This document shows positions 9,108 through 64,000 of a DNA stretch of 64,000 nt, in pieces. The DNA is from an uncultured Bacteroidales bacterium. Its GTDB lineage: Bacteria > Bacteroidota > Bacteroidia > Bacteroidales > DTU049. How positions within the stretch are numbered: position 1 is the stretch's first letter; each line of letters opens with the position of its first letter. Below the pieces are notes generated by a model that saw only the letters and a program-made list of their open reading frames with translations, did no database searches and was not told the origin of the DNA. The stretch spans positions 62,864-126,863 of the forward strand of contig CAZGIW010000001.1 in the NCBI GenBank assembly GCA_964526285.1, given 5' to 3'. The position numbers were made by a program, and so were the translations under genes.

Positions 9108-9142
9108 TTTGTCTGCTCAGTGATTATATTTATATTTGCAAA

Positions 9143-40100: not shown

Positions 40101-40113
40101 CCACAAAATAGGA

Positions 40114-41127
40114 TTATTTGAAACTCAATTTCTCCACAATCACATTTCCAAGCTGTTGAGGATATATTTCACGCATGCATTGACAATCTCCGGTTTTTCT
40201 GCAATCAGAACATTCTTTATTGTGCATAAACACATGCACATTTTTTCCCAGCGGAGCCCATCTTCCGGGATGCATGGGACGGATGGGAGGATATATGCCA
40301 AAGGCATGAATGCCAGCAGCAGCAGCAATATGCAGTGGTCCGGTACTGGAAGCCACCAGTCCCTGACATCCTGTAATGAGTGAAATGTATTGCTGAAGAC
40401 TTAACTTCCCGCCAACATCAGTGATTTGTCTTTTTATTTCAGGAAAAACATTCCGGTAGATTATGGCTTCGGATTCTGTTCCAGCAAAAATCACATTATA
40501 TTCATCTTCGGGCAGCAGATTTGACAATTCAACATAATATTCAAGAGGCCACTCCCGTGCGCTTCCTCTTGAGTGAGGATGAAAAATTATGTTTTTTCTG
40601 TTTTTGTCAATGAATAGAGAAACGGCATTATCAATAGCTGGAAGTCTGTCAAACAGACATATGGCAGATAAATCTTCAAGAGAAAAAACATTGTTGGTAA
40701 AAAGAGGCTTTAAAAGCTTCAGGTTTAACTGTGTTTCATGTAGTTTTGAGTTTTTGCGACCGAAATTAACAAGACCATTGCAATATAACAGGTGGAATAA
40801 TCTGTGAGAAGTACCAATACGGAGGGGGATGCCAGCGCTGAAAGCAGTTTTAGCAATTTTTTTCTGAGGAAATACATGCAAAATTGCATGTGCTTCTAAA
40901 TCCTTCAATTGTTGAATTATTTCTTTTTCAGGTTTTTTTTCCATCTCATCCCATTCCACAATTTTGTCTATGTATGAAGCACACTCAAGCACAGGCTTTG
41001 TGTATGAATTACCCAAAAAGATTATTTCGGATTCAGGAAATTGTTTTTTCAATATCACCGCCAGCGGCAGAGTGAGTATCACATCTCCGATTTTATCTGT
41101 GCGACTGATGATAAAATTTTTCATCAT
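40114..41127 (-). CDS. Glycosyltransferase family 9 (heptosyltransferase-like)
   Basis: 337 aa. N-terminal ISRTDKIGDVILTLP and C-terminal GLVASSTGPLHIAAA are typical of GT9. Confidence 0.8.
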   Translation of the reverse strand: MMKNFIISRTDKIGDVILTLPLAVILKKQFPESEIIFLGNSYTKPVLECASYIDKIVEWDEMEKKPEKEIIQQLKDLEAHAILHVFPQKKIAKTAFSAGIPLRIGTSHRLFHLLYCNGLVNFGRKNSKLHETQLNLKLLKPLFTNNVFSLEDLSAICLFDRLPAIDNAVSLFIDKNRKNIIFHPHSRGSAREWPLEYYVELSNLLPEDEYNVIFAGTESEAIIYRNVFPEIKRQITDVGGKLSLQQYISLITGCQGLVASSTGPLHIAAAAGIHAFGIYPPIRPMHPGRWAPLGKNVHVFMHNKECSDCRKTGDCQCMREIYPQQLGNVIVEKLSFK

Positions 41128-43150: not shown

Positions 43151-43222
43151 AACAAATTTGGTCAAAAGCTTCTTTTGGTTGTTATTTTGCTTCAAAATGC
43201 AAACGCAAAAAAACTTAAAACG

Positions 43223-49200: not shown

Positions 49201-50035
49201 TTTTCTAATTGTCAATCAGGCAGGCCAATACACCTTGTTAATTTCAAATCATTGCGGAAGTGCACAAAGCTCTAATATGATTGAAGTAACAGTAACGACA
49301 GTTCCCCCCGTGGTCAGCATCAATGCAAACGGACCACTGGAATTTTGCCAGGGAAATGATGTTCAGCTTAGTGTATCAAATATTCCAGCAACAGATTATC
49401 AATGGTTTCATAATGGCGTCCCCACGGGCAGCAATCAACCCTCCTTTGTTGCCCTGGCCGGAGGCCAATATACTGTTTCGCTTGAAAATTTCTGCGGAGT
49501 TTCACCTGCTTCTGATACAGCCAATGTGATTGTTAATGATTTACCTGTGGTAACTTATACACAAACACCTGCATTAATTTGTGAAGGATGGGGAGATGTG
49601 CTGCTTGAGGGTGGCTTGCCTGCCGGCGGAACATATTCAGGTCCTGGCGTTTCTGGAAACTACATAAATGCTTCAGTTGCAGGAATTGGTACACATATTC
49701 TAACTTACACTTATACAGATATTAATAATTGTCAAAATGTTGATACTTCTCTTGTAATTATTGATGCATGCACAGATATGATTATAAGTTTCAGGGAAAA
49801 AACATCTGTTTATCCAAACCCGGCTCAGGACGTAATATATCTGTTAAGTTCAAAATATGAATCAATCAGTTCAGTCGCAGTGTATAATATGAATGGAAAA
49901 AAAGTTATCCCTGAAGAAAAGACATATTCAACAAATCATTCTATCAATATTGCCCATCTTACACAAGGCGTTTATTTGATAAAAGTTAACTATATAGATG
50001 ATAGTTTTGTCATGCTGAAGTTAATAAAACAGTAA
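43223..50035 (+). CDS. Giant T9SS-secreted adhesin-like protein (2x LamG, about 8 CUB-like, 5 Ig-like modules, T9SS sorting domain)
   Basis: Signal peptide at ATG 43223. Two Laminin_G_3-type domains (LDESGNNNHG...FRGKIDEVRFYNRVL). Alternating CUB-like modules (F.DPGG.GNY...; DTLW.YDG). Y[KQE]W...G repeated Ig-like modules. C-terminal VYPNPAQDVIYL...GVYLIKV. Confidence 0.75.
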   Translation: MKVKNYLFTFLAITMLISCFVKVTQAQINLDNGLMLYYPFSGNFLDESGNNNHGSVSSTGCYLIRDKTGNPNSAVFFNGALEQGMIEMPDTLINGRSEFSMSYWFNPASLTNGMSLVGQDNILETGFYTSSTRVVVWHPTSGAVNVTLSQGVDVWQHLAVTCSSTQMKIYLNGTLVNTLNGNYSLGSNSFIPGIGGNVVNQNNNTWFRGKIDEVRFYNRVLNQEEVNLLSSSISLTYSIQNISQTTICAGSQINVDYTVIGTGIPADNVFSLQLSDENSSFSSPLILANQTGNSSGSFVNVTVPHYLNNGSNYKLRVVSSKPMHEGAESGQTLIVNNPSLGLSTLERDRILYYMFDMNTADSSGYGRDGVAYGGTSWIDDRHGNAFSAVQLNGTNGYIDVPQDVWFDGSNFTIAAWVNPASYNNWSRIMDFGIGAGNENIIFTLSNGTTGNLFASVRRGSTTVGSLTGGQLPLNKWSHALLRFDGSNLEIYINGNLSATTTCDAPRLVSRTTCYIGRSTTASNEYANAAFDDFMMWNRALTHDEIKVLANDGLIFSNSPVCEGNILHLDAVSINNASYAWSGPQGFSSTTKMNELSPAVDLMSGTYHLTVSIDACVFNNAEKEISVITAASQTTPSFTGLPGYTYTGAATNSLTPTPSGGFFNGPGITGNVFNPTVAGVGNHNIIYSYMNTAGCVSTADSIVVVGQGYLMDNNIITDCWGGFFDSGGRTANYQNNEDYTLTFCSDNGERMQFNIKSISIGTGDTLWAFDGPDTNSELIAMYIANSNRDFVWTSGTCMTFRFKSDASATTSGWEAEFRCMTDPSVPNEITDMSTGFRTVCSGTFRDPGGSGNYSVGTHRTQTFRSVDGQRLKLHFTMLNINGNNGGHWLRVYDGPTTAYPHIGSYNEWAWPPGSVVESTGEYLTFVFDATNSSAGSRPGWEATWECTTPVMHVISIQDNDTTICEAVFCDNGGLNANYDHNSKDTITLSAMPGKILSLTFNHNNTQFGAGDTLWVYDGSDATANLKAMYITTSRMDPIYSSGTDFTFVFHSDGTGNGRGWQGYLSCIDAPAPLVTYDMSTGVRVVCDGFFRDPGGGGNYSVGTHRTQTFRSVDGQRLKLHFTMLNINGNNGGHWLRVYDGPTTAYPHIGSYNEWAWPPNSRVESTGEYLTFVFDATETSAGSRPGWEATWECTTPVMHVISIQDNDTTICEAVFCDNGGLSANYAHNSRDTITLSAMPGKILCLTFNHNNTQFGAGDTLWVYDGSDATANLKAMYITNSRMDPIYSSGTDFTFVFHSDGTGNSRGWQGYLSCIDAPAPLVTYDMSTGVRVVCDGFFRDPGGGGNYSVNTHRTQTFRSVDGQRLKLHFTMLNINGNNGGHWLRVYDGPTTAYPHIGSYNEWAWPPNSRVESTGEYLTFVFDATNTSAGSRPGWEATWECTTPSLPHIYVGDSASPICDAVIYDHAGPAVNYGTNRKDTTVVCSDNSQLLQVIFNHNETGFAAGDTLWIFDGSSTLSPPLGMYITGSRIDQIVSSGTCLTFVFSSDNANQHRGWQGVVSCITVPPAQISYNMSTGVRYVCSGKFLDPGGTGNYPRGTWVQTYTSYNGERLRFTRNSFNVNGNNGGHPFSVYDGPSTASPLIGTYTNFAFPPAVFQSTGSSLTFAFNSTNMSAGTTAGWDFGINCFSGNPIDVLWLTSPVCAGDTLLIHYELNDTVGAGNVFTAQLSDMNGSFGSPVNIGTFASETSGTMEVVIPAGTPAGSGYRIRLMSSVPVQIGNPSPNPMIVYAAPSVPVVSPSGPVQICSGSQEVLLSVAPQSGVNYKWYRDGLYPVGSNLPYYTAQTSGQYSVELENSCATVSSNIVTVDAVLLPIPPVIYAPVDTGICDGQQVLLVTDSLGGVSYQWKNNGIDTGANQHFLLTGTPGVYHVEITNACGTVASVNSSEIIITGAVPSAPLIVASGQPDICDGDEIELSVPLMANHNYEWRRNGLTIGTDTNFLIVNQAGQYTLLISNHCGSAQSSNMIEVTVTTVPPVVSINANGPLEFCQGNDVQLSVSNIPATDYQWFHNGVPTGSNQPSFVALAGGQYTVSLENFCGVSPASDTANVIVNDLPVVTYTQTPALICEGWGDVLLEGGLPAGGTYSGPGVSGNYINASVAGIGTHILTYTYTDINNCQNVDTSLVIIDACTDMIISFREKTSVYPNPAQDVIYLLSSKYESISSVAVYNMNGKKVIPEEKTYSTNHSINIAHLTQGVYLIKVNYIDDSFVMLKLIKQ
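45713..47926 (+). repeat. Three tandem 738-bp (246-codon) repeat units inside the adhesin gene, plus a diverged partial fourth unit to about 48270
   Basis: Unit starts (ATGAG[TC]AC) fall at 45713, 46451, 47189 and 47927, exactly 738 bp apart. Units 1-3 are roughly 90% identical by eye, and the differences are distributed mosaically. Confidence 0.9.
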
Positions 50036-50176: not shown

Positions 50177-51985
50177 ATGAAAAGAATTCTATTTTGTTTG
50201 ATCTCCTTGTGTATGTTTTTCATCGCAACACATGGACAGACAGTGCTAATTGATGAAGATTTTGAAAGTTACACAGATGGTGGTTTTCTAGTTCAACAGG
50301 CAGGTAATCCATGGACAACATGGAGCAATCAACCCGGAGGAGCTGAGGATGCAGTGATTTCAACAGTACAGGCAAACAGTCCTACAAAATCTGTTCATAT
50401 CCAGAATGCTTCGGATGACATTATCCTTAAACTGGGTAACAAAACAAGCGGAAAATACTCCGTTGAATTCTATTATTTTATCCCCACAGGCTATGGTGCT
50501 TATTTTAATATTCAGCACTTTGAAGCTCCCGGAACAGAATGGGCTATGGAAACATATTTTGGCAATAACGGTACAGGAAACACTGTTGTGAATAGTGTGG
50601 AAGAAAACTTTTCACATGCCATGGACACATGGTTGCAAATTGAACTGGTTGTTGATCTTGATCTTGATTCCGCCTGGTTCTATTTAAATGGTTCTTTAAT
50701 AAGAGGATGGATTTTTAGTATGCAGGCATCAGCGCCAACAGGAACAAAACAACTTGGAGGAATTAACTTCTACGGAGGGGCCATTACAGGACAAACACCA
50801 CAGTATTTTTTTGACGATGTAACATTTACACAAGTTGTTGCTGGTTCAAATCCTCCCGAGATTCAACTAAGCACAACGAATATTGCCACTGATGGTTCGG
50901 CAAATGAAGTGTTTACAATTTCCAATCTTGGAGATCAGCAAATGACTTTTATTGCTTATCCTACTTATCCTCAGGGTGGAACCAAAGCGTTGTCCAATGA
51001 AACAAGTACATTGGTATCAATTGGCTATAATAATGCAGAGGGCTTTGACAAAACAGATAAAGCAAATGAATTATCATATGTTGTGGGATTGCTTACCGGT
51101 GGAGTTGGATTTGCCTCCACTATAAACGGAGTTCGCTCTGCAGTTGTTTTTGATTATAATTTTATCAATCAATACATAGGAAGAGAATTGGTGTCAATTA
51201 CCATTGGAGTAAATGATCTTCCCTCTGGAACAACCAAAGTTCAGGTTTGGGGAAGAGGCTCTTATACAACTCCTGGCGCCGGAACCCTTATTGATGAGAA
51301 AAACTTTACTGCCACAACAATTGGCGAAGAAATTACAGTAACACTTGATAGCCCCATTTATCTTGACGGTAATGAAATATGGCTTGGATGGGTTGGAGAT
51401 GCACTTGCCTCAACTTACCCAATTGGAATAGACGAAGGTCCGAGATTTCCTGGAGTAAACTGGCTGGCCGTTGGACCAGGTTGGTCTGAAATGAGCCCCA
51501 CAATTGATAATAATCTCTATATAATGGGAACATTGCAGGGATCATCTTTGTATCAATGGTTGAGTGTAAGTCCACAAAGCGGAACCATTAATGGGGGTGG
51601 AAATCAGTCAATTACAGCCAGTTTTAATACTACAGGAATGACCAATGGAAACTATTATGCTGAAATTGTTATTGGATGTAACGATCAAACTCAGGAGTAT
51701 TCAGAAGTTGAAGTATATCTTACAATTGGAGCATCTGTCAATGAATATGGCGAAAATGTTGCTGTCATGACATTCCCAAATCCTGTTTCTGAAATGTTTA
51801 ATATTAACGCCAATACCTCTCTTTTGAAAGTTGAGGTGTATTCTATTACAGGTCAAATTGTGAAAGCATTTGCCCCGGCAACGGATAATTTTTCATTTTC
51901 AGTTAACGACCTTTCTGCTGGTATTTATACTGTAATTATTTCAACGGAAAAAGAAAAAGTTGAAAGAAAAATTGTTGTAGAATAA
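50177..51985 (+). CDS. Secreted protein with T9SS C-terminal sorting domain
   Basis: 602 aa, signal peptide. C-terminal FPNPVSEMFNINA...GIYTVIIS...RKIVVE. Confidence 0.6.
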   Translation: MKRILFCLISLCMFFIATHGQTVLIDEDFESYTDGGFLVQQAGNPWTTWSNQPGGAEDAVISTVQANSPTKSVHIQNASDDIILKLGNKTSGKYSVEFYYFIPTGYGAYFNIQHFEAPGTEWAMETYFGNNGTGNTVVNSVEENFSHAMDTWLQIELVVDLDLDSAWFYLNGSLIRGWIFSMQASAPTGTKQLGGINFYGGAITGQTPQYFFDDVTFTQVVAGSNPPEIQLSTTNIATDGSANEVFTISNLGDQQMTFIAYPTYPQGGTKALSNETSTLVSIGYNNAEGFDKTDKANELSYVVGLLTGGVGFASTINGVRSAVVFDYNFINQYIGRELVSITIGVNDLPSGTTKVQVWGRGSYTTPGAGTLIDEKNFTATTIGEEITVTLDSPIYLDGNEIWLGWVGDALASTYPIGIDEGPRFPGVNWLAVGPGWSEMSPTIDNNLYIMGTLQGSSLYQWLSVSPQSGTINGGGNQSITASFNTTGMTNGNYYAEIVIGCNDQTQEYSEVEVYLTIGASVNEYGENVAVMTFPNPVSEMFNINANTSLLKVEVYSITGQIVKAFAPATDNFSFSVNDLSAGIYTVIISTEKEKVERKIVVE

Positions 51986-53975: not shown

Positions 53976-54040
53976 GGTTTTTTGTAACTGTTCTGTAAAT
54001 ATAATTTTTGTTACAGCTCACCAATTTATCACTATTTGAG

Positions 54041-54178
54041 GCTGTCTCAAAACGCTCATTTTTTGATTTTCATCGACTTATTTGCCCCTTCCCTTAAGGG
54101 AGTAAGTCGCTGAAAATCAGCGTACACCCTAAAGTTGGGGCAATAATAATTTCCGGTAGATGTTGGTTTTGAGACAGC
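54041..54178. other. 138-bp structured element bounded by a perfect 13-bp inverted repeat (MITE-like or ncRNA)
   Basis: GCTGTCTCAAAAC (54041-53) and GTTTTGAGACAGC (54166-78). Internal stems: CGACTTA/TAAGTCG, palindrome TCCCTTAAGGGA, CGCTGA-AAA-TCAGCG, TTGCCCC/GGGGCAA. Confidence 0.5.
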
Positions 54179-54401
54179 TGCAACAGAAAACAAGTTTTCT
54201 TTACTGCTGATTCAAAACAAACATAGCCTTTTGTATTGCTGAAAATTTGTACAAACACAAATAATAGTACTGAACAGGTACTAATTTTTCATTACTGACC
54301 GAAAAACAAGTAAAATTTTGGGAACTGAAATCAATTCATGTATTTATGATAATCAGCCTTTCAGTAGGGTGTTTTTATTGAAATCTGTTGCAGGGAGGGA
54401 G

Positions 54402-54445
54402 GCATGGTCTTATATGTCAGCCGTTTGCTTGATTGGTGGCTGGCT
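54402..54445 (-). repeat. Junction module copy F (3-prime half only; array terminus)
   Basis: Directly after the stop of ORF 54446: AGCCAGCCACCAATCAAGCAAACGGCTGACATATAAGACCATGCC. It aligns with the post-stop halves of copies A and B (GCCAGCTAATCAAG..ACGGCTGA) but lacks the ACTCAAC box and the promoter. Confidence 0.6.
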
Positions 54446-55024
54446 TTATTCTTCTTTTAATGTTGTTCCTAATATTTTTATCGTTTTAGAAAGTTCAATA
54501 AATGAAGGAAAAAGTTCTTTAAATTCAACTTTATCCTCTGTTGATAATACTGCTGTAACAATTGTATTCTTGCATTCAATAATTAGTATTACTTCATTTC
54601 TTCCATTCGGATATTCATAAGTAATCGTCATATAATTTCCAGTCAAATAGTCATCACTTTTGATGTTGTCAAATTTTTGATTTAAAGTATCTATTTTTAC
54701 TTCCCTAAATTTGTCTGATATGTAATCGTTATTTCCTTTTATCCAAGCATTTAATTCAGGTGTGCTATTATAGTCAATACCATAAACATACATATAAGTT
54801 TCAGAACTTGCTTCTCTATCAGGCTTTATAAAAAAAGGCAATTGGTCATTTTGAGCTTGTAGCCAATCTTTAGGAATATCAACAAAAATTGTGTGATTAT
54901 GTCCAACTACCATTTTAGATTGTCCGAAGTTCTGTCCGATAAATAGAATTGTCAAGATTAATATTGATGTGAGTTTCTTCATCGTGACTATGTTTTTTGG
55001 GTTATGTCTTGTGCTTCTGTTCAT
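54446..55024 (-). CDS. Hypothetical secreted protein (second gene of a two-gene cassette)
   Basis: 192 aa. Hydrophobic signal segment (MKKLTSILILTILFIGQNFGQ). The ATG at 55024 overlaps the upstream stop (ATGA). An alternative ATG lies at 54982. Confidence 0.45.
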   Translation of the reverse strand: MNRSTRHNPKNIVTMKKLTSILILTILFIGQNFGQSKMVVGHNHTIFVDIPKDWLQAQNDQLPFFIKPDREASSETYMYVYGIDYNSTPELNAWIKGNNDYISDKFREVKIDTLNQKFDNIKSDDYLTGNYMTITYEYPNGRNEVILIIECKNTIVTAVLSTEDKVEFKELFPSFIELSKTIKILGTTLKEE

Positions 55025-56283
55025 AGTTTAATTCTTGCTAATTTTTTAAGCCCTTCTTTGTATTCATCAAATGTTGCATTAATTCCGTTTATCAAAAGCT
55101 TATAGAGGCCTTCTACATCTTTTTTCCCTAAATCGACTAATTTGTAGCTTTCACTGGTCCATACACATGTCCAGTTCCACCAATGCTTATTAGTGCCAAA
55201 GCTTTCAGGCAGCTTAAACATGCTAAGTGTTTTATTTCTATGTGCTTGCTTATCATATGTGTTATATCTCTTATCATAAAAACCAACCATAAGTCTTAAA
55301 GAAAAGAAATCATCAATATCTGGTTTTGTTTGTTCAGAATGGAGCATGTATAAACCATGAAAACCATTCTTGTTGCCAATATTGTACAACTCAGGAATGT
55401 AAATTTTAAATTCCTTTGGGGTATTACTTTTTTCAGGATGGTATTTAAAAAAGATATTATTTAAACTAAAAGGCAAATTATTTGATGCCATAATTCGAGT
55501 TTCAATTTCATCAAAAACGTTTTTAACATTTGGGGTGTATTGGTTTATAAGCTTTATTGCTAGTCTGTTCTCTTTATCAAAATAAAGTTCTTTAACTAAT
55601 TCAGAGATTTCTTTTTCCATTTTTTGATTGTTGGTTAATTTATCAATGTGGTTTTTAAGTATTTCTAAAAACAATTCTCCTTGACCTTTCGAATTCAATA
55701 ATAATTGTTCGCAAACATTTGAAAGCACTCTGTATGAAACAGAAACACAAGGGCATTTTTTGTTTTCATCGCTTGTTTGAGCCAATATCCCTTCAGGCGT
55801 AAGATAAATTAGCAATTTAGAAATATTCTGAAACGAAAAACATAAAGAATTTTGATAATCTCTTATTTGGTCATTCTGTTCGCCACTATCAACTTTGTTT
55901 TCAATTCCTACAACAGCTTTGATTTTTCCTTTTTGGTCCGTGATTTTTAAAAGAATATCCAGCCTTCTTGAACTCTCTGTACTCCATTCTGTAATACAAG
56001 TTATTCTAGTTCCTTCTTCTTTTGGCAAGGATTTAGAAAAACTCATTAATTCTGGTAGTTGTTGCATCAATACCCTGAAAGCAGATTGACCAAGACCATG
56101 GTTTTGATTGGAGTCAAGCAAATAAGCAAAAAGCTTTGACCAAGCCATTTCGTCAATTAATTCGTTGAAAACTGTTAATAAATCGAATTTTCTTTGACTT
56201 TCATGAATTAGCATGCCAACTTCCTGAAGGTTTTTAAATTCAGACGTTTCAGTTAATTTATTTATAAGTGTTGTATCATTCAT
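55021..56283 (-). CDS. PD-(D/E)XK nuclease-family protein
   Basis: 420 aa. Core RRLDILLK...VVGIENKVDSGEQNDQIRDY gives a D...E-x-K restriction-endonuclease-like motif followed by a Q..R.Y helix. The C-terminal region is unrecognised. Confidence 0.55.
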   Translation of the reverse strand: MNDTTLINKLTETSEFKNLQEVGMLIHESQRKFDLLTVFNELIDEMAWSKLFAYLLDSNQNHGLGQSAFRVLMQQLPELMSFSKSLPKEEGTRITCITEWSTESSRRLDILLKITDQKGKIKAVVGIENKVDSGEQNDQIRDYQNSLCFSFQNISKLLIYLTPEGILAQTSDENKKCPCVSVSYRVLSNVCEQLLLNSKGQGELFLEILKNHIDKLTNNQKMEKEISELVKELYFDKENRLAIKLINQYTPNVKNVFDEIETRIMASNNLPFSLNNIFFKYHPEKSNTPKEFKIYIPELYNIGNKNGFHGLYMLHSEQTKPDIDDFFSLRLMVGFYDKRYNTYDKQAHRNKTLSMFKLPESFGTNKHWWNWTCVWTSESYKLVDLGKKDVEGLYKLLINGINATFDEYKEGLKKLARIKL

Positions 56284-56487
56284 TCCTGATGTTGTCTTTT
56301 ATCATAAGGGATAACCATCCAGTGCTTCATTCAACATTTCCCTCACAAAAATAAACAAATTCCCTAAACCCCATCATAAAAATTATTCAACTGGCGGAAA
56401 GTGATAATGATGAGTGTGCATGGTTGAGTGCTTGCGGTTGTTTGACTGTCAGCTGTATGCCCGATTAGCGGTTCGTGCTTTATTCTT
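56284..56487 (-). repeat. Junction module copy A (full)
   Basis: Contains GCTAATC, CAGCTGACAGTCAAAC, the ACTCAAC box (plus strand GTTGAGT 56423-29), a hairpin with loop TTTCCGCCAGTTGA, a -7 box, the GTTGAAT box (plus strand ATTCAAC 56329-35), and ATGAAGCAC. Confidence 0.75.
56346..56353 (-). promoter_or_regulatory. Bacteroidetes -7 promoter box TATTTTTG (module A)
   Basis: Matches TAnnTTTG. It lies 15 nt upstream of the conserved ATG at 56330. Confidence 0.5.
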
Positions 56488-56868
56488 CTATTCATTGTAA
56501 ATACTCGCAAACTCTTTCCAAAGAATTAATGAATCGTTTACTAAATCATATTCATAAATTTCTTTGGTTAAACTGTCAACGAAAATCAATTTGTCTGTCA
56601 CATATCTGCATTCAAAACTATGTCCAATTTTGACCATTGCATAATTTCTTTCATTTCGTTTTGTTATCTCTTTTATGTAAGTTACAGGGTGTCCGTCAAC
56701 TTGCGTCAAACGTTCTTTGTTGCTTTCCAAATATTTAATTATGTATTCGTCTGCCCATAGTGCCACTTCTGGAATAGTGTCTACTTGTGGATTGTCTAAC
56801 TTTTTTCCTGTCGTGTTTGAGCAAGATGTCAAAAAAAATACTGACAATATGTAAAGTAAATGTTTCAT
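56488..56868 (-). CDS. Hypothetical lipoprotein (cassette)
   Basis: Lipobox MKHLLYILSVFFLTSCS at ATG 56868. The in-frame upstream ATG at 56913 lies in the conserved module. Confidence 0.5.
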   Translation of the reverse strand: MKHLLYILSVFFLTSCSNTTGKKLDNPQVDTIPEVALWADEYIIKYLESNKERLTQVDGHPVTYIKEITKRNERNYAMVKIGHSFECRYVTDKLIFVDSLTKEIYEYDLVNDSLILWKEFASIYNE

Positions 56869-57058
56869 CGTTTCTGTCGTTCTAAAATGACCGCTAACTT
56901 CCAAGTGCTTCATTCAACGTTTTCACAACAAAAATAAACAAACTTTTCAAATTCAAATTAAAAACTCCTCAATTGGCAGAAAAGGATTGAGAAGTTTGCA
57001 TCGTTGAGTGCTTGTTGATGTTTGACCATCAGCCGTCTACTTGATTAGCTGGCGTATT
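56869..57058 (-). repeat. Junction module copy B (full)
   Basis: Best-conserved copy. Plus-strand ATTCAAC at 56912-18 and GTTGAGT at 57003-09. Inner pair CAAACTTTTCAA / TTGAGAAGTTTG. Loop CTCAATTGGCAGAAAAGGATTGAG. Confidence 0.75.
56929..56936 (-). promoter_or_regulatory. Bacteroidetes -7 promoter box TATTTTTG (module B)
   Basis: TAnnTTTG match with TTTG motifs upstream, 15 nt upstream of the conserved ATG at 56913. Confidence 0.5.
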
Positions 57059-58900
57059 TTATTCATCATCAAAGCGGTCTCCTTTTATTAATTCACCTTC
57101 TTTATAATTTGCCTTTTTTACAATATCGCCATTATCATTCCACTCTATCCATTTTCCAATTCGTTTACCTGCAGTATAATTGCCTTCTCTAAATTTTTTA
57201 CCATTCTCAAACCATATTGTCATCAAACCGTCTTCAATATCATTTTTATAGTTTATTTCAGCCATCTTTTGGATTGGAATATCCTCATCTGACTGAGCTG
57301 TCAATGACCAGCCAGCTAAATCACCACTAGTAAAATCTAATGGAACATTTTGTTTTCCACTTGGATACCATAATATCCATTTCCCATTTTTTGTATTCTG
57401 ATAATATTCGCCTTCACTTTCAATTGCACCATTATCATAGAATGTTTTCCATAATCCATGATATGCTCCATTAATCATTTGTCCAGTTTCCATTACAACG
57501 CCATTCTCATAATAAAAAGAAAAAACACCGTTAAAAATTCCATCTTTTAGTTCTCCTTCAGTTCTATAATTTCCATTTATCCAAAACTCATAAAATTTCC
57601 CAGTATATGGTTCATTTTTATAATATATCAATTCTTTTTTCCACGTTAAAGACAGTCCATTCATTAATTGTATGCGGCTATAAAATAGTTGAGATTTAAC
57701 TCTATTAATAAAATAGTCCTTGTTTTTAACTTTATTTTCGGAACCTGTAATGATTCTATAATTCTCATCAGTTGTAAAATCTTGTTCGTTTTTACCTACT
57801 TTGATTTCATACTTTTGACCTAAAAAGGAAAATACAGATGTAACAAATTCATCATCTTCTGTGATTATCATATTTTGCAAAGAACTATCAAGTTTGGTAA
57901 TAAAAACGTTATTATCATAATGTGAAGCTACTAAATTTACAAGCCTTTGATTTGCTTTCATATACTGTTGTTCTCTAACTCCACTGCCAAAGTAGGTTAT
58001 TATAAAAGTTAAGTTTTCTTTTACTGCTTTATCGAATTGTTCCATTTTTTCATACAGAAAAACATACCATTCTAAGATATGGATGTCATGTTTAAGTCTA
58101 TGAGCATTTGAGTAAGTATAAAAGGGATAGGTTTTTTCTTTATTTAACCATTCAAGTGATTTTTCCCAATCTCCTCTATACTCAAACACATATGCCATAC
58201 CCTGGCATGCTTTGTTTTTGAAGTTGGCAAGTGGATATGCAAAATTACCTGTTTCCATACTGTCAACTAGGTCTGAATTTAAAATTCTGAGATACCAATT
58301 TTCAGCATTTTCATAATCTTTTGACCAGAGATAACTGTCAGCAATAATCAAAGATAATTGCCCGTATCTTAGTCCAGTAGTGTCTTTTACAATAGACAAC
58401 CCCCGTTTAGCATAATCAATTGCTTTTTTATAATTTTTCTGATGATAATTATTGATTGCATTATTATATGCTTCATCTATCTTAATAAGTGCTTCATTAA
58501 TTAAAACATTTTCAATTTTCACACAAGAATTATCGCAACCTTCAATAATATCAATGTAATCATTAATATTATTTATAGGTTGAAAATGCAAACTAAATTT
58601 TATAGAATCATGGTCAAATTTATAAGAATCAGGACAGATTTTCATTCCTTCTGTTTTTAAAAGCTTGTATGTTTTACTGTCAGATTTTCCAATAATATAG
58701 TAAGAAGTATCAACACAAAACCATCCTTCATCTGCATAAATTGAAAAATATATGACAGTTTCAGTTGTTGACATAACAACTCTTTCAATTTTTAAATCTT
58801 TATGTGTTGTTTTATCAAATGGGGGGTCTACAATAATAGTTTGACAAATTACTGTTCCTACAATAAGAGAGGTAATTAAAAATAAAATAGTTCTTTTCAT
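57059..58900 (-). CDS. Secreted TPR plus MORN-variant/YwqK-like repeat protein (cassette)
   Basis: 613 aa, signal peptide, central TPR-like helices. The C-terminal 200 aa carry G.W..[FW]Y.NG....EG repeats of the same type as ORF 104..1615. Confidence 0.55.
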   Translation of the reverse strand: MKRTILFLITSLIVGTVICQTIIVDPPFDKTTHKDLKIERVVMSTTETVIYFSIYADEGWFCVDTSYYIIGKSDSKTYKLLKTEGMKICPDSYKFDHDSIKFSLHFQPINNINDYIDIIEGCDNSCVKIENVLINEALIKIDEAYNNAINNYHQKNYKKAIDYAKRGLSIVKDTTGLRYGQLSLIIADSYLWSKDYENAENWYLRILNSDLVDSMETGNFAYPLANFKNKACQGMAYVFEYRGDWEKSLEWLNKEKTYPFYTYSNAHRLKHDIHILEWYVFLYEKMEQFDKAVKENLTFIITYFGSGVREQQYMKANQRLVNLVASHYDNNVFITKLDSSLQNMIITEDDEFVTSVFSFLGQKYEIKVGKNEQDFTTDENYRIITGSENKVKNKDYFINRVKSQLFYSRIQLMNGLSLTWKKELIYYKNEPYTGKFYEFWINGNYRTEGELKDGIFNGVFSFYYENGVVMETGQMINGAYHGLWKTFYDNGAIESEGEYYQNTKNGKWILWYPSGKQNVPLDFTSGDLAGWSLTAQSDEDIPIQKMAEINYKNDIEDGLMTIWFENGKKFREGNYTAGKRIGKWIEWNDNGDIVKKANYKEGELIKGDRFDDE

Positions 58901-59073
58901 TCCTTTATGTTGTTTTTGGTGTTAAATATGCCAGCCAAGGGTTGCGGCTCTGGTTTTGGGCGGGATTTTTCCCCCACTAATCTTTCATACTGCCACGCAA
59001 ATATACAAATAATTCTAATCTGACAAGAAAAGATGAACCCCGCCTAAAACCAAGCTGCGGTTATGCACATGGC
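58901..59073 (-). repeat. Junction module copy E (sequence variant, same architecture)
   Basis: A 24-nt bulged inverted repeat, GTTGCGGCTCTGGTTTTGGGCGGG (58941-64) and CCCCGCCTAAAACCAAGCTGCGGTT (59038-62), flanks a -7 box. Confidence 0.65.
58998..59005 (-). promoter_or_regulatory. Bacteroidetes -7 promoter box TATATTTG (module E)
   Basis: TAnnTTTG match centred between the two arms of the inverted repeat. Confidence 0.45.
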
Positions 59074-59565
59074 CTATTTAATTTTCTTATATCTTGTCAC
59101 TGGTTTTATACCGTATATCTTGTCAAAAACTTGCGCCGATTTGTCTATTTTTACTTTTGTTTTTGAAAAACTTTTTTTCCAAAGATATTTGAGTTTATCC
59201 TTATTAATTATAAACGTGTCTGTCCATTCAGAACCGACGACTTCTCTAGTTGAATAAAAATAAATTCTATTTTTTTTCTTAATCCAAAACCCTGTCTTTG
59301 TCAAAGGTATTGAGCTATCAAATGACCTTGTGTCACTATAATAGTCCTTTTGTTCATATGTCGAGTCTGGGTTGAGTTTAATAAATGATTTAGAATATTT
59401 TATTTCTGTCATGTTCTTAAGTTTGCCGTTCTTAACAGTGGATTTCTTTTGTTTTGTTGTTTCTTCTCCAACATATTTTATTGTGTCAGGTCGGTTGTTG
59501 AGTTGACCATACCCACTTGCTTGTCCAAGAAATAAAACAGTCAATATGAGCAAAATGTTTTTCAT
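59074..59565 (-). CDS. Hypothetical secreted basic protein (cassette)
   Basis: 163 aa, signal peptide MKNILLILTVLFLGQASGYGQ, lysine-rich. Confidence 0.45.
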   Translation of the reverse strand: MKNILLILTVLFLGQASGYGQLNNRPDTIKYVGEETTKQKKSTVKNGKLKNMTEIKYSKSFIKLNPDSTYEQKDYYSDTRSFDSSIPLTKTGFWIKKKNRIYFYSTREVVGSEWTDTFIINKDKLKYLWKKSFSKTKVKIDKSAQVFDKIYGIKPVTRYKKIK

Positions 59566-59787
59566 TCGGTTTTGTTTTTAATTATTGTGCACAACTCATT
59601 TACAAACGAAACACGCTCTCAACAAACCATTCTTTTTTTATTGGTGATAAAGATGCTTGTTTCACCCTCACAAAAATAAACAAAATCTTTAATTGGCAGA
59701 AAGAAATTTGAGATGAGTGCATCGTTGAGAGCTGCTGGATTATTGGGTGTTGGTAGTCTAATCGATTATGCGGTCCGTGCTACGCGG
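59566..59787 (-). repeat. Junction module copy C (full, with insertion)
   Basis: Perfect 9-bp inverted repeat GCTCTCAAC (59615-23) / GTTGAGAGC (59724-32). Conserved AATTGGCAGAAAG loop and CACAAAAATAAACAAA promoter block. Confidence 0.7.
59671..59678 (-). promoter_or_regulatory. Bacteroidetes -7 promoter box TATTTTTG (module C)
   Basis: TAnnTTTG match inside the inverted repeat. Confidence 0.45.
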
Positions 59788-60156
59788 TCAATGGTTAAGT
59801 AAGTCTGGGTGTCTTACAATAGCTCTATGTAATACTTTGTCCAAACATTGCTTATGAGAAAATATTGTCTGAGATTCGCCAGTGTCTTTGTCTACTATTA
59901 TTGTAAGCTGTACGGTTTTTTCAAAGGGCAAACTATCTCCACAGAAACAACACATAGCGGAATAGTCCACCGTCCAAGAATTTAAAGGAACACTAAACTC
60001 TTCGAAAGCAAACTCTTTAGCCATTTGCTCAGTTTCCTGAACGTAGTCTCTTATACATATATTTTGTTTGTCATAAATGTAAAGATAAAAACCAACTTCG
60101 GGTTTGTCCTCAACTATCGCAAATGTCAAATTATTATATTCTGCAAGTAATCTCAT
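59788..60156 (-). CDS. Hypothetical cytoplasmic protein (first cassette)
   Basis: 122 aa from ATG 60156 (MRLLAEYNNLTF...). In-frame upstream ATGs at 60186 and 60204 lie in or next to the conserved module. Contains a CCFCG...HKQC possible zinc-binding pair. Confidence 0.4.
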   Translation of the reverse strand: MRLLAEYNNLTFAIVEDKPEVGFYLYIYDKQNICIRDYVQETEQMAKEFAFEEFSVPLNSWTVDYSAMCCFCGDSLPFEKTVQLTIIVDKDTGESQTIFSHKQCLDKVLHRAIVRHPDLLNH

Positions 60157-60186
60157 GTCGCTTGTCCTTGTTTTACCATGACACAT

Positions 60187-60300
60187 AACTTTCAAGTGTT
60201 TCACTCATTCTTTCAAAAGCAAAAATAAACAAACTTTTGAATTTCAACTGAAAAATTCTTCAATTGGGAGAAAAATTATATTGAGATCAGTAATAACAGA
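60187..60300 (-). repeat. Junction module copy D (5-prime half only; tRNA-proximal array start)
   Basis: Shares with copy B the hairpin loop (TTTTCTCCCAATTGAAG), the promoter block and ATGAAACACTTG. It lacks both RYYYAAC/GTTRRRY boxes and the post-stop half. Confidence 0.6.
60220..60227 (-). promoter_or_regulatory. Bacteroidetes -7 promoter box TATTTTTG (module D)
   Basis: TAnnTTTG match 15 nt upstream of the ATG at 60204. Confidence 0.45.
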
Positions 60301-60324
60301 ATGAGAATCAGAAACAGAATGAGG

Positions 60325-60362
60325 GGAAAACAAAGAGAGAAACACATGTGTTTCTCTCTCTG
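60325..60362 (-). terminator. Rho-independent terminator downstream of tRNA-fMet
   Basis: Perfect palindrome GAGAGAAACACATGTGTTTCTCTC, followed on the minus strand by TTTGTTTT. Confidence 0.7.
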
Positions 60363-60368
60363 TTTTAG

Positions 60369-60440
<72 letters not shown>

Positions 60441-60504
60441 TTGTATTTTTTTGTACTTTTGCGTTTGCAAAGATACATATTTTTTAAACACAAACAAAAA
60501 AAAG

Positions 60505-62734: not shown

Positions 62735-63105
62735 TGAAAGTAAGGGTTGACCGGTTTTTGCATGCAGTAAGGATTTTCAAAACCAGATCTGTGTCGTCTG
62801 ATGAATGCCGGCTTGGAAAAGTGAGTGTGAACGGGTCAGAGGCCAAAGCATCACGCGAAGTACAGGCCGGTGATGAAATTACAATCCGTTTTCATGGTTT
62901 CAGCAGAACCATAAAAGTGTTGCAAATACTTGAAAAAAGGGTAGGAGCAGCGTTGGTTGAAAAATATTATGAAGACATAACCCCTGAGGATGAATTGTTG
63001 AAAAAAGACATGCTTAAACTGAACCGAAATGAGTTCAGACAAAGAGGAGCAGGTCGTCCCACCAAAAGAGAAAGAAGAGACATTGATCGCCTAAAGGGAG
63101 CCTAG
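62734..63105 (+). CDS. S4-domain RNA-binding protein (Hsp15/HslR-like)
   Basis: 123 aa. N-terminal VRVDRFLHAVRIFKTRS...V.VNG S4 motif and a basic C-terminus. Confidence 0.7.
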   Translation: MKVRVDRFLHAVRIFKTRSVSSDECRLGKVSVNGSEAKASREVQAGDEITIRFHGFSRTIKVLQILEKRVGAALVEKYYEDITPEDELLKKDMLKLNRNEFRQRGAGRPTKRERRDIDRLKGA

Positions 63106-64000
63106 CGTATCACAATCTTCTCCGTAAACAATGTTTCGTTATTGTTGTTTCTTACCACAAACAAATACATGCCTGCCGGATAGGTTGAAACATCAACAGT
63201 AAAGATATCTTTCGCCAAAACATCAACATTGGTTTTCAGAATAAACTCGGTTCCCGATGATGAAATCAGAACAAATGTTGCATTTTCAACAGCTGTGCTA
63301 ATATCAATATTGAGAATATCACTCACCGGATTGGGAGAAACATGCACCATGAATGTTTCATTGAAACCTGGGTTAACACTGATTGATTGTGAATAATGGA
63401 AGTCACCGTCAAAATCAACCTGCTTCAGTCTGTAGTAGGCAATACCATCAGGCGCATTGTTGTCTGTGAAATCATACTGAATAATTTCATTTGAGTTGCC
63501 TTGTCCGACCACTTCACCGATGTATGCAAACTCTCCGTTATCATTCAGGCGTTCAACATCAAAACGTTCATTATTTTCCTCAGAAGCTGTTTTCCATGTG
63601 AGTTCATTCACTCCCATACGTATGTGTTTTCCGGAGAAAGCAAACAACTCAACAGGAAGAGCAATACATTCTGTGCAGTTGCAATCAAATCTCCATGCCT
63701 GATTTGTTGCTGTCCATTGGGTTGGATAGTTATATCCTGCAGGAACTCGGGCTAAAGTACCGTTGTAACTGTGAAGACCAAGAATTGCAGCACCATTATT
63801 CCAGGTTGAACAAAGAGTTTTGTTTCCAATATGTACTTCAATATCATTGGTTGTTTCAAAGAGTTTAAGCTGAGATGTATATAATAAAGAGGAACAGCTG
63901 TAATAAGGAATAGCAGAATAGGTTAAAACAAATCTTCGGTTTGGCGCTGTTCCAAGCACCTGATATCTGATGGTACCTCCGGTTGCGGGATTGATGTCTT
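63102..64000 (-). CDS. Secreted protein with T9SS C-terminal sorting domain (5-prime end outside window)
   Basis: C-terminal VSPNPVSDILNIDI...GMYLFVV...EKIVIR. The frame stays open from 63959 to the window edge (no stop in 63960-63998), so the gene is truncated by the window. Confidence 0.6.
   Translation of the reverse strand, partial: DINPATGGTIRYQVLGTAPNRRFVLTYSAIPYYSCSSLLYTSQLKLFETTNDIEVHIGNKTLCSTWNNGAAILGLHSYNGTLARVPAGYNYPTQWTATNQAWRFDCNCTECIALPVELFAFSGKHIRMGVNELTWKTASEENNERFDVERLNDNGEFAYIGEVVGQGNSNEIIQYDFTDNNAPDGIAYYRLKQVDFDGDFHYSQSISVNPGFNETFMVHVSPNPVSDILNIDISTAVENATFVLISSSGTEFILKTNVDVLAKDIFTVDVSTYPAGMYLFVVRNNNNETLFTEKIVIR

Follow-up and report, generated by a model that had tools for sequence, protein, structure and literature searches.

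Positions 54402-60362 of the window, by which we mean the whole 64-kb stretch of DNA that was analysed, probably hold an array of five gene cassettes (i, ii, iii, iv and v+vi) that is rAID/integron-like, lacks a recombinase in the manner of a CALIN and is partly decayed. The junctions between the genes are repeats, they delimit cassettes with permuted ends, and they resemble rAID-1 sites. The array belongs to a known kind, and what is special here is its long junctions bearing a promoter motif.

Layout and cargo of the array

The preliminary description had placed six co-oriented minus-strand ORFs at 54446-60156, and all are present at those coordinates (Table 1), with no mutual similarity beyond signal peptides in an all-vs-all BLASTP search. 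The AT-richness it had noticed is likewise real: the GC content is 0.317 across 54402-60362 vs 0.369 in the remaining window, and the array is the 6-kb stretch with the lowest GC anywhere in the 64 kb. The neighbouring tRNA is, as had been proposed, an initiator tRNA-Met(CAT) (ARAGORN; Rfam RF00005, 68 bits), and its sequence shows the C1/A72 mismatch and the anticodon-stem GGG/CCC that mark an initiator. Its suggested role as an integration anchor could not be upheld, since the far end of the array carries no repeat of the tRNA 3' end.

As cargo, the array carries one candidate anti-phage nuclease besides accessory proteins that are secreted or lipoproteins. At 126 aa, ORF iv is shorter than its 207-220-aa homologs, whose C-terminal part it does not have. 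Polyimmunity or orphan-immunity loci of polymorphic toxin systems are, as far as they are cited in 10.1101/471110, the source of immunity-family profiles. The array resembles such loci in being composed of small unrelated genes, often coding for secreted proteins or lipoproteins. A MORN_2-repeat protein is also present in the window (ORF iii), and this repeat presumably occurs in YwqK-type antitoxins. However, such loci are not defined by recombination sites, and no cassette protein matched an immunity family in Pfam, NCBIfam or fold searches.

Table 1. Features of the cassette array and its tRNA neighbour, by position in the window
Feature	Position	Strand	Details
Cassette i	59595..60188	-	left end (G)TTATGTGTC 60180-60189; 3' site = junction C
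Cassette ii	58939..59594	-	left end GTTGTGCACA 59586-59595; 3' site = junction E
Cassette iii	56898..58938	-	left end CTTGGCTGGC 58930-58939; 3' site = junction B
Cassette iv	56315..56897	-	left end GTTAGCGGTC 56889-56898; 3' site = junction A
Cassette v+vi	54402..56314	-	fused, two genes; left end GTTATCCCTT 56306-56315
ORF i	59788-60156	-	122 aa; no family match
ORF ii	59074-59565	-	163 aa; signal peptide
ORF iii	57059-58900	-	613 aa; signal peptide, TPR, MORN_2 (Pfam)
ORF iv	56488-56868	-	126-aa lipoprotein, C terminus shortened
ORF v	55021-56283	-	PDDEXK_4 (Pfam); PADLOC candidate PDC-S26
ORF vi	54446-55024	-	start likely 54982
Junction A	56316-56487	-	R'' AACCGCTAAT 56464-56473; -7 box 56346-56353
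Junction B	56899-57058	-	R'' GCCAGCTAAT 57044-57053; -7 box 56929-56936
Junction C	59596-59787	-	R'' ACCGCATAAT 59765-59774; -7 box 59671-59678
Junction D	60190-60290	-	5'-truncated; promoter half and L' side; -7 box TATTTTTG 60220-60227
Junction E	58940-59073	-	hairpin-type; R'' TGTGCATAAC 59060-59069
Junction E stem	around 58998-59005		14-20 bp around TATATTTG
v/vi boundary	55001-55010	-	R'' box AAGACATAAC, sole remnant of the site of cassette v
Junction F	54402-54445	-	3'-truncated site; R''-like GCCACCAAT 54432-54440
tRNA-fMet (CAT)	60368..60440	-	upstream neighbour of array; ARAGORN, Rfam RF00005
tRNA-fMet promoter-like site	60468-60501		motif match
tRNA-fMet terminator palindrome	60327-60366		palindrome search

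Junction modules and permuted cassette ends

Junctions A, B and C are, as previously described, copies of one module, with common blocks of 60-105 nt at 61-100% identity. The partial copies were also correctly recognized: junction D is the promoter half without the post-stop (R'') half, 78% identical to module B over 105 nt, junction F is the post-stop half only, having ~30 nt after the stop codon in common with the module, and junction E is an architectural variant, namely a separate, hairpin-type element. Contrary to what had been thought, the module stops short of the start codon: its limit is a core site that reads GTTA.. or, in junction E, CTTG.. and precedes each ATG by 30-38 nt; the last 30-38 nt before each ATG belong to the downstream cassette. 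The v/vi boundary, reported to be free of a module, has indeed lost the site body but has kept the post-stop box. The diagnostic blocks AAGCACTCAACGATGCA (three matches vs 0.23 expected) and TGAATGAAGCACTTGGAAGTTA (two matches vs 0 expected) are confined to the array, and no copy of the shared module lies outside it in the 64 kb. Some features tell against a cassette system: R'' ends in AAT, not AAC, in four of the six sites, and the R' of junction E begins with C. In the lowest-energy fold of both strands the ends of junction B pair as AGCTAAT-CAAGT / ACTTG-GAA-GTTAGC, and a closing helix forms in junctions B and E only; in modules A and C, again at odds with a cassette site, L'' and L' do not pair, and the fold is no better than that of shuffled sequence (z +1.5 and -1.1).

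The best-conserved block of the module is the promoter region (TTTCYSCCARTT ... TTTGTTTATTTTTG). Motif matching agrees with the earlier proposal that every cassette has its own promoter: all five junctions that precede a cassette contain TAnnTTTG, and in copy A, where the distance was measured, it lies ~30 nt upstream of R'. Judged from this motif, the junctions may be active as promoters. An outward-facing Bacteroidota promoter motif (TTTG / TAnnTTTG) lies inside the site body, so that each cassette would supply the promoter for its downstream neighbour and junction D that of the first cassette; the site body would have grown to 170-190 nt in this lineage.

Taken as its reverse complement, the left end of each cassette matches that cassette's own downstream R'' box at 4, 6, 6, 6 and 5 of 7 variable positions, whereas pairs from the same junction match at only 3, 0, 5 and 4 positions. 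The observed own-pair total was reached in 2 of 120 permutations. An unbiased scan selects the same pairs: the mean is 5.4 in the array, 4.2 in a control set of 42 other ORFs (p 0.009) and 3.45 among cross pairs (p 0.001); for a single cassette the complementarity overlaps the background, 17 of the 42 control ORFs scoring at least 5. Such complementarity would be the mark of a once-circular cassette. The array is probably of an integron-like type whose cassettes are moved in Bacteroidota by a Xer-like tyrosine recombinase, with rAID-1 as the gut representative. A cassette would open with the TT of a core site (R', GTTA...), which precedes the ATG by about 30 nt, and would take in the ORF, the post-stop box (R'', ...TAAY) and the remaining junction as far as the next core site, whose first base would be its last. 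With these limits, each junction would serve the preceding cassette as its attC-like site, and in the circular form the left end of a cassette would pair with its own R''.

Related arrays and their recombinases

Homologs of cassettes iv and v are found in other Bacteroidota arrays. Those of cassette iv sit in co-oriented arrays of accessory genes at the loci L013, with MNT/HepT and HigB/HTH pairs, L025, with DndB and a methyltransferase, and L026. Between cassette iv and L013, DNA identity switches from ~95% to none exactly at GTTAGCGG, and the homology of cassette v with locus L028 begins at GTTATSCCTTATG (GTTATSCC) and stops at ..AAGRCATAAC just after the stop codon; in both cassettes it sets in at the GTTA core, which precedes the ATG by 30-32 nt. 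These cross-genome breakpoints, exactly at the core sites of two cassettes, bear out the integron-like or rAID-like logic first proposed, as do the circularly permuted inverted-repeat ends and the same geometry in the rAID-1 array L035. The iv homolog in L026 is flanked by 115-130-nt hairpins (CGCTAAC-AGGGTATAA...TTATACCCC-ACC-GTTAGCG). The site body downstream of cassette iv is unrelated among the window, L013 and L026, which a strict model of sites travelling with their cassettes would not predict.

L035 is a textbook rAID-1 array of Parabacteroides distasonis, in which Tdi1 and SMI1/KNR4 genes come after the integrase. The junctions of L035 share the geometry of those in the window (GGTAAC-AAAGCG...CGCTTA-ACC-ATTACC), and the permuted-end signature is even cleaner, with 6-7 of 7 own-pair matches in 6/6 cassettes, a result reached by 1 of 720 permutations. 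Locus L036, on a plasmid of Chryseobacterium, has a co-oriented recombinase and, after it, cassettes whose permuted ends are perfect (GTTATACGAT / ATCGTATAAC). This recombinase is 48% identical to that of L035 over 275 aligned residues, and the L036 site TATAACAGCGATTTGGCA...CGCCAAGCCGCAGAACGTTA is of the same type as the site upstream of the iv homolog in L013. Recombinases beside window-type sites are 38-48% identical to a rAID-1 recombinase, and in L028 a co-oriented recombinase remnant lies directly upstream of the v homolog. By this indirect route of comparison with relatives, the window array may itself once have been linked to a recombinase and mobile.

It is unlikely that the array is instead the remnant of a canonical integron, a CALIN in the strict sense, whose attC sites would serve an insertion-bearing IntI and would recombine with the bottom strand folded. 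Of the features of attC, just the AAC and GTT at its ends are conserved universally (PMC2727003), and both are present or nearly so in the junctions. The permuted cassette ends agree with this reading, the bottom strand of junction E gives the better fold, and integrons and CALINs have been reported from Bacteroidota (PMC9024848; PMC8618304). The best NCBIfam match of the L028 remnant is TIGR02249 (integron integrase, 1.1e-15), but XerD scores equally well (1.4e-15). The intact related recombinase L034 stays below the IntI cut-off (216 vs 265 bits) and above that of XerA, and has 23 residues opposite the 66-residue stretch of VchIntIA that includes the IntI insertion; the one recombinase of this kind that was checked, from Persicobacter, is Xer-like and lacks the IntI-specific insertion. 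Moreover, the recombinases of L034, L035 and L036 and the L028 remnant are co-oriented with their arrays, as in rAID-1. Canonical attC sites have unpaired spacers on both sides and extrahelical bases, whereas in the window junctions R'' and L'' are contiguous and a 3-nt bulge is found on the R' side only.

Known systems, distribution and mobility

Arrays of acquired interbacterial defence associated with a recombinase (rAID-1) are known from gut Bacteroidales (Ross et al. 2019, 10.1101/471110; PMC12247911), and the preliminary description had characterized them in agreement with the published definition (10.1101/471110). The window shares with them, in a Bacteroidota genome, short low-GC genes that are unrelated to each other and arrayed in one orientation, a repetitive element at the junction of each gene pair, the junction order of contiguous R''-L'', then L', a 3-nt bulge and R', and the permuted-end signature. 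In contrast to rAID-1, there is no recombinase in or near the window, the host is an environmental, deep-branching Bacteroidota rather than a Bacteroidales, the junctions measure about 170-220 nt and contain a promoter motif vs 60-90 nt in L035, R' is GTTA at 30-38 nt from the ATG rather than ATTA at 18-24 nt, and the cargo includes a candidate anti-phage nuclease but no match to a T6SS immunity family.

Integrase-less cassette arrays (CALINs) and sedentary chromosomal integrons (Cury et al. 2016, PMC4889954; 10.1101/2024.07.02.601686) are similar in their unrelated ORFs of one orientation, each with an imperfect-palindrome site behind it that terminates in ..AAC/..GTT-like boxes, in a crossover that would lie at G|TT, in cassette left ends complementary to their own sites, in site similarity that is higher within than between arrays, in the absence of a nearby integrase, and in the toxin-antitoxin and defence genes carried by related arrays. 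They differ in that recombinases in the related loci are without the IntI-specific insertion and point the same way as the array, the window sites are longer than usual, with A and C not folding, and no extrahelical-base features were identified in them. Each window junction also has its own promoter motif, whereas promoters are rare in integron cassettes (PMC4889954).

A scan with a pattern common to the four promoter halves found the module at this locus only: the 185,579 species-representative reference genomes gave one match, by chance, and the JGI metagenomes this locus, two chance matches and nothing further. The locus recurs in at least eight metagenome assemblies, and all its copies there agree in sequence or gene order, so that the cassette gain, loss or reordering for which the preliminary description had suggested a comparison is not seen, and there is no evidence of current mobility. 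No tyrosine recombinase was found within 54 kb on one side (ORF list; part of the ORFs Pfam-scanned), in line with the earlier statement, or within 11 kb on the other.

Local duplication, in tandem or by gene conversion, of a promoter or leader before unrelated, co-regulated accessory genes, with coincidental end boxes, would fit a promoter region that is the best-conserved block, a locus-specific module and the lack of mobility between samples. Yet it is improbable, as it leaves unexplained the exact GTTA homology breaks in two independent cassettes, the complementarity of left ends to their own and not the adjacent post-stop box, the conservation of the post-stop half and the geometry common to the L026, L035 and L036 sites. 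Very improbable is the repeated insertion of a small MITE-like non-autonomous element among genes already in place: the terminal inverted repeats of module B (GCTAAT...GTTAGC) measure 6 + 5 bp, and at their 5' ends modules provide a stop codon or adjoin one (GAWGAATAA in B, F and A), but copies outside the array are absent from the 64 kb, the reference genomes and three JGI metagenomes containing the organism, no target-site duplications are apparent on reading the junctions by eye, the inverted-repeat sequence changes with the flanking cassette instead of being constant, and genes, not modules, recur in other genomes.

As a cassette array, the region is most likely a sedentary, CALIN-like remnant, and movement of its cassettes would need a matching recombinase encoded elsewhere in the genome or gained by transfer. 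Fused cassettes and truncated ends are typical of sedentary arrays. Here, the signs of decay are truncated sites at both ends, the lost v/vi site, the shortened ORF iv and the degenerate stems of A and C.

Array layout and locus specificity

The six ORFs between tRNA-fMet and the channel gene all lie on the minus strand and are mutually unrelated, with only signal-peptide-level matches among them, and three of the junctions (A, B and C, 170–220 nt in length) have long blocks in common, which bears out the preliminary description of co-oriented, unrelated genes separated by a recurring junction module. Junction D has the promoter half in common with A, B and C, F has only about 30 nt after the stop codon and E is a different element, so the description of E as an architectural variant, and of D and F as a promoter half and a post-stop half, also stands. 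The diagnostic blocks of the module are confined to the array within the window, far above chance. As had been proposed, the array is AT-richer than its flanks (GC 0.317 versus 0.369 in the rest of the window) and forms the lowest-GC 6-kb stretch there, a modest skew, the host itself being AT-rich. Its upstream neighbour is a tRNA-Met(CAT) with the initiator features of a C1/A72 mismatch and GGG/CCC in the anticodon stem, as read from the sequence. The proposed role of this tRNA as an anchor was not upheld: no direct repeat of the tRNA 3' end that would mark an island boundary was found at the array. The interval from the stop of the channel gene to the end of the array contains a nested palindrome (outer arms of 18 nt with 89% complementarity, inner arms of 17 nt with 94%), which may serve as a terminator in both directions, be one more hairpin site or form some small structured element.

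Coordinates of the array, its neighbouring features and the compared loci, with cassette left ends and post-stop boxes (positions given for cassettes i to v are those of their ORFs)
Feature	Sequence	Position	Left end	Own post-stop box
Array	window, minus strand	54402-60362		
Cassette i	window, minus strand	59788-60156	GTTATGTGTC	ACCGCATAAT
Cassette ii	window, minus strand	59074-59565	GTTGTGCACA	TGTGCATAAC
Cassette iii	window, minus strand	57059-58900	CTTGGCTGGC	GCCAGCTAAT
Cassette iv	window, minus strand	56488-56868	GTTAGCGGTC	AACCGCTAAT
Cassette v	window, minus strand	55021-56283	GTTATCCCTT	AAGACATAAC
ORF vi	window, minus strand	54446-55024		
Junction A	window	56284-56487		
Junction B	window	56869-57058		
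Junction C	window	59566-59787		
Leader in A	window	56284-56330		
Leader in B	window	56868-56913		
Leader in D	window	60156-60204		
Nested palindrome	window	54036-54183		
Por_Secre_tail proteins	window	43175-50035; 50177-51985; 63102-63959		
111-nt direct repeats	L012	5789-5899; 6462-6572		
42-nt tandem repeats	L012	5456-5623		
P0151, first context	L032	509-1786		
P0151, second context	L033	3834-5111		
rAID-1 locus L035	NZ_OY725747.1	66889-85911		
Junctions of L035	L035	10495-15600		
Hairpin element, two copies	L036 (NZ_CP041688.1)	9010-9160; 11075-11250		
IS110 transposase; group II intron reverse transcriptase	L036	12128-13129; 14594-15910		
tpnF recombinase	FJ012881.1 (Acinetobacter plasmid)	39546-40259		

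Genome collections and JGI metagenomes were scanned with the promoter half of the module. A pattern fitting all four promoter halves gave one chance match, in an archaeon, among 185,579 species-representative genomes, and in the metagenomes this locus in three samples plus two chance matches. Since the pattern is thus found only at this locus and in chance matches, the module is neither a dispersed repeat nor a generic promoter. Its interpretation as a MITE was rejected, among other reasons because it is the genes and not the modules that recur in other genomes, and so was that as a plain promoter duplication, which accounts neither for the homology breakpoints at GTTA nor for left ends that match their own post-stop boxes. 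Searches for identical proteins retrieved the locus from several assemblies in ENA and JGI, with identical gene order and, where aligned, identical sequence; no gain, loss or reordering was visible among these copies, and current mobility of the cassettes finds no support in them. Contigs carrying the locus often break within the array, and metagenome contigs L002-L005 and L016-L019 of this organism end in it at junction modules; the junction repeats fragment short-read assemblies, and MAGs therefore probably contain fewer such arrays than exist. The CASTOR/POLLUX-type channel beside the array has its nearest homologs at 62% identity; hence the organism has no close sequenced relative, and the channel-to-era interval is therefore not comparable across relatives. 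Given this identity, the host belongs to a Bacteroidota lineage of which few members have been sampled. Several large proteins with a Por_Secre_tail domain, predicted T9SS cargo, are encoded elsewhere in the window, one of them of 2286 aa with Laminin_G_3 and CUB domains.

Cassette boundaries

Cassette iv has 18 homologs, several of which lie in other co-oriented arrays of accessory genes, such as L013, with MNT/HepT, HigB/HTH and an AAA ATPase, and L025, with DndB, a methyltransferase and a ParA-like protein; L025 has repeated junction modules of its own, in which no R boxes are readable. The iv protein is 89% identical to its L013 homolog, and the DNA of the two loci cannot be aligned ahead of GTTAGCGGTC but is about 95% identical from exactly this point, which lies 30 nt upstream of the iv ATG; the breakpoint of this comparison falls at GTTAGCGG. 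For cassette v, homology with L028, the locus of a v homolog, starts at GTTATSCCTTATG, 32 nt upstream of the v ATG, a breakpoint written GTTATSCC, and stops at ...GAACAGAAGCACAAGRCATAAC just after the v stop. The post-stop box is followed in L028 by a 150-nt element homologous to an L013 junction and in the window directly by ORF vi, so v and vi are read as a fused cassette from which the intervening site has been lost. ORF iv, with 126 aa, lacks the C-terminal domain of about 90 residues of its homologs (207–220 aa) yet keeps their R''-proximal post-stop tail, ACGAACCGCTAA, and is hence an internal-deletion derivative. Its AlphaFold model (pLDDT 76) has one helix and a five-stranded sheet, and a fold search with this model gave no PDB match at E < 0.1.

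In every cassette of the array, the left-end 10-mer is complementary to the box after the cassette's own stop codon (Table); GTTAGCG, for instance, reads CGCTAAC when reverse-complemented. Own pairs have 4, 6, 6, 6 and 5 matches at the seven variable positions (27/35), compared with 3, 0, 5 and 4 (12/28) for pairs within the same junction, and the observed own-pair total is reached by 2 of 120 permutations. A box-unbiased scan recovers the identical pairs and gives higher scores to own pairs than to mismatched pairs (p 0.001) and to the array than to 42 further ORFs in the window (p 0.009). By analogy with integron cassettes, such permuted ends would be the look of a once-circular cassette opened at G|TT within its site; in attC sites, base conservation is confined to AAC in the R'' box and GTT in the R' box (PMC2727003). 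Here R'' is the box after the stop codon and R' the core site upstream of the ATG, with L'' and L' as the inner pairing boxes. The circle of cassette iv is predicted to have module A joined at ...CACTGGATG|TTAGCGGTC, and the model predicts arrays that lack exactly one cassette and are joined at G|TT. Downstream of orthologous iv cassettes, the site body is wholly different between the window, L013 and L026 and resembles the other junctions of its own array; site bodies therefore look array-specific, which is not explained by a single crossover at G|TT. L011 (an iv homolog) and L027 (a v homolog) are single insertions without repeated junctions and hence uninformative. In L012, a further co-oriented array of accessory genes, from a Chitinophagaceae MAG, the iv homolog lies between 111-nt direct repeats of 94% identity, with 42-nt tandem repeats upstream and an IS110 transposase 3 kb downstream.

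Putative junction promoters and probable decay of the array

Bacteroidota sigma-A promoters have a TTTG at -33 and a TAnnTTTG at -7. Junctions A, B and C hold TTTCYSCCARTT, then TTTG, then TATTTTTG with the TAnnTTTG -7 box, located about 30 nt upstream of R' in A, and a TAnnTTTG box with an upstream TTTG is matched in every junction upstream of a cassette, E and D included. This motif match agrees with the earlier proposal that each cassette has its own promoter; there would be one promoter per junction, which would sit in the upstream cassette's site and drive the downstream cassette. A scan of the region for sigma-70 promoters and terminators was uninformative, the host belonging to the Bacteroidota. 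Junctions A, B and D also carry a conserved ATG/GTG leader, MKHL(E/K)V, which shares the reading frame of ORFs iv and i and in A forms a separate 16-codon upstream ORF whose end overlaps the v start as ATGA; the upstream leader starts are used by public gene calls (141-aa protein P0001).

All five complete junctions have AAY/GTT ends, and by hand R/L pairing was seen in only two, B and E. The L boxes of A and C do not pair, and neither of these junctions outperforms shuffled sequence in folding; in whole-module folding only B, and E on the bottom strand, stand out, the score of D coming from the tRNA terminator. Folding of the post-stop halves alone gave no conserved hairpin, and Rfam families, searched with E values up to 1, matched the tRNA only. 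The site loops (40–150 nt) and sequences are heterogeneous and unfit for reliable alignment. The R' of E starts with C, D is without the R'' half and F without the R' half. As had been noted, no recombinase lies nearby: none was found among ORFs of at least 120 aa over 54 kb on one side, some of which were scanned against Pfam, or in 11 kb beyond era on a longer ENA contig. The unpaired A and C, the core variant of E, the truncated D and F, the shortened ORF iv and the missing recombinase point to a sedentary, partly decayed array. The published rAID search, anchored as it is on the recombinase, would overlook recombinase-less arrays of this kind, and we suspect that integron finders also miss them because their sites are long and fold poorly.

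Related recombinases, classification and cargo

In L026 the iv homolog lies between hairpin sites of the form CGCTAAC-AGGGTATAA ... TTATACCCC-ACC-GTTAGCG. The textbook rAID-1 array of Parabacteroides distasonis (L035), in which Tdi1 and SMI1/KNR4 immunity genes come after an integrase, has junctions that are 60–70-nt hairpins, GGTAAC-AAAGCG ... CGCTTA-ACC-ATTACC, and in junction B of the window AGCTAAT-CAAGT ... ACTTG-GAA-GTTAGCG pairs in the minimum-energy folds of the two strands alike. Common to L035, L026 and B is that R'' is directly followed by L'' and that a 3-nt bulge separates L' from R'. In all six cassettes of L035, the left ends are complementary to the own post-stop boxes at 6–7 of 7 positions, a total reached by 1 of 720 permutations; counted over the full 10-mers (ATTA...... 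and ......TAAC), they are reverse complements at 8–9 of 10 positions. Cassette boundaries thereby become exact and testable, with recombination placed at (A/G)|TT and each left end complementing the post-stop box of its own cassette, a rule that a textbook rAID-1 array also obeys. Human gut microbiomes are rich in rAID arrays. The mechanism by which rAID genes are acquired has been stated to be unknown (PMC12247911), no prior statement of exact rAID-1 cassette boundaries was found in the literature searched, and none of the top-ranked search results linked rAID with attC-type cassette boundaries.

Directly upstream of the v homolog in L028 lies a co-oriented C-terminal remnant of a tyrosine recombinase, for which IntI and XerD tie in NCBIfam and whose best plasmid match is a 363-aa Persicobacter recombinase (L034). 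The latter is followed by a co-oriented two-ORF unit with the ends GTTGTACAC / GTGTACAAT, passes the XerA cut-off and fails that of the integron-integrase family TIGR02249 (216 bits versus a cut-off of 265). It has 23 residues in place of VchIntIA residues 180–245 and hence lacks the IntI insertion, which is essential for integron function (PMC8138268). Among the relatives of the L034 recombinase is the integrase of L035. For related loci the L035 recombinase served as a stand-in reference in place of BF9343_RS08045, and the recombinase of a Chryseobacterium plasmid (L036) is 48% identical to it over 275 aligned residues. The cassette ends of L036 are perfect (GTTATACGAT / ATCGTATAAC), and its site TATAACAGCGATTTGGCA ... 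CGCCAAGCCGCAGAACGTTA is of the same type as that upstream of the L013 iv homolog, so that a chain of evidence leads from cassette iv of the window via the L013 array and the L036 site type to a rAID-family recombinase. Also present on L036 are a hairpin element of 190 nt that has no ORF and occurs twice, an IS110 transposase and a reverse transcriptase of a group II intron; group II introns target attC sites in integrons.

Published rAID-1 arrays are recognized by a 5'-located XerD-like tyrosine recombinase that shares 44% identity or more with BF9343_RS08045, an array gene GC of at most 41%, skewed relative to the host, conserved repetitive intergenic motifs and a cargo of orphan immunity genes of interbacterial toxins (10.1101/471110). 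The present array resembles them in the co-orientation of its six minus-strand ORFs, in its GC of 0.317 and in the repeated module of A, B, C and D, and the R''-L''...L'-3 nt-R' geometry of L035 recurs in B and E; the sequence itself is not alignable to the rAID-1 motif. Its cassette proteins matched no immunity family in Pfam and NCBIfam searches, and the cargo includes MORN_2 repeats in iii and a PDC-S26 candidate in v. Because no recombinase was found in the 54 kb and 11 kb searched, the array is not a member of rAID-1 as published. Integrons and CALINs are recognized by an IntI with the insertion, at least two sites that fit the attC covariance model, with R and L boxes, an unpaired central spacer and a variable terminal structure, a G|TT cassette structure and promoterless cassettes served by a Pc promoter (PMC4889954, PMC2727003, PMC8138268). 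An IntI with the insertion is absent from the window, as the insertion is from the L034 recombinase, and the array is not a member of the IntI integrons; a CALIN is by definition without a nearby IntI, and L034 shows only which recombinase family accompanies such sites. The array does have the integron cassette structure, with G|TT and a left end complementary to the own R'', whereas integron cassettes are mostly promoterless with a common Pc and here the TAnnTTTG motif stands in every junction upstream of a cassette. Judged by its sequence, the array appears to work like, and to be related to, rAID-1 and integron CALINs, and the sharp homology boundaries, permuted ends and rAID-1 site geometry support the integron-like or rAID-like reading of the preliminary description.

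We regard the chances as evenly balanced that Bacteroidota have their own integron analogue, with a Xer-like co-oriented recombinase without the IntI insertion and hairpin sites R''-L''...L'-3 nt-R' cut at (A/G)|TT, of which rAID-1 is one branch and Flavobacteriales, Cytophagales, Chitinophagaceae and this deep-branching lineage hold others, the site being a promoter-bearing module in some, this lineage included. An incoming cassette would then bring a promoter for its downstream neighbour. If true, promoter-bearing sites would solve the expression of foreign genes in a phylum with unusual promoters and would be a new way for a cassette platform to express captured genes. The compared loci suggest that the system extends to environmental Bacteroidota, with a cargo there of toxin-antitoxin pairs and phage-defence candidates, beyond T6SS immunity genes.

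Within the array, ORF iii encodes a secreted protein with TPR and MORN_2 repeats, which also gave the only NCBIfam match among the six cassette proteins, a sub-threshold one to an adhesin family, and ORFs ii, iv and vi have signal or lipoprotein signals, as read directly from their sequences. ORF v is a PDDEXK_4 protein and the only one of the six with a PADLOC match, to candidate PDC-S26, which makes it a candidate phage-defence nuclease. Its homologs occur in many genomic contexts, and tblastn against plasmids gave distant PD-(D/E)XK matches only. An identical v homolog, P0151, adjoins HerA/NurA-like genes and a methyltransferase in one locus and lies between ksgA and a response regulator in another, unrelated one, consistent with recent mobility of the v cassette family. 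Many Acinetobacter plasmids encode tyrosine recombinases that are 51% identical to residues 119–361 of the Persicobacter rAID-like recombinase, one annotated as TnpF and others as tyrosine recombinase/integrase; xerD-like genes of this kind presumably occur in the surroundings of tet(X), and this would point to an origin of this plasmid recombinase module in a Bacteroidota cassette platform.
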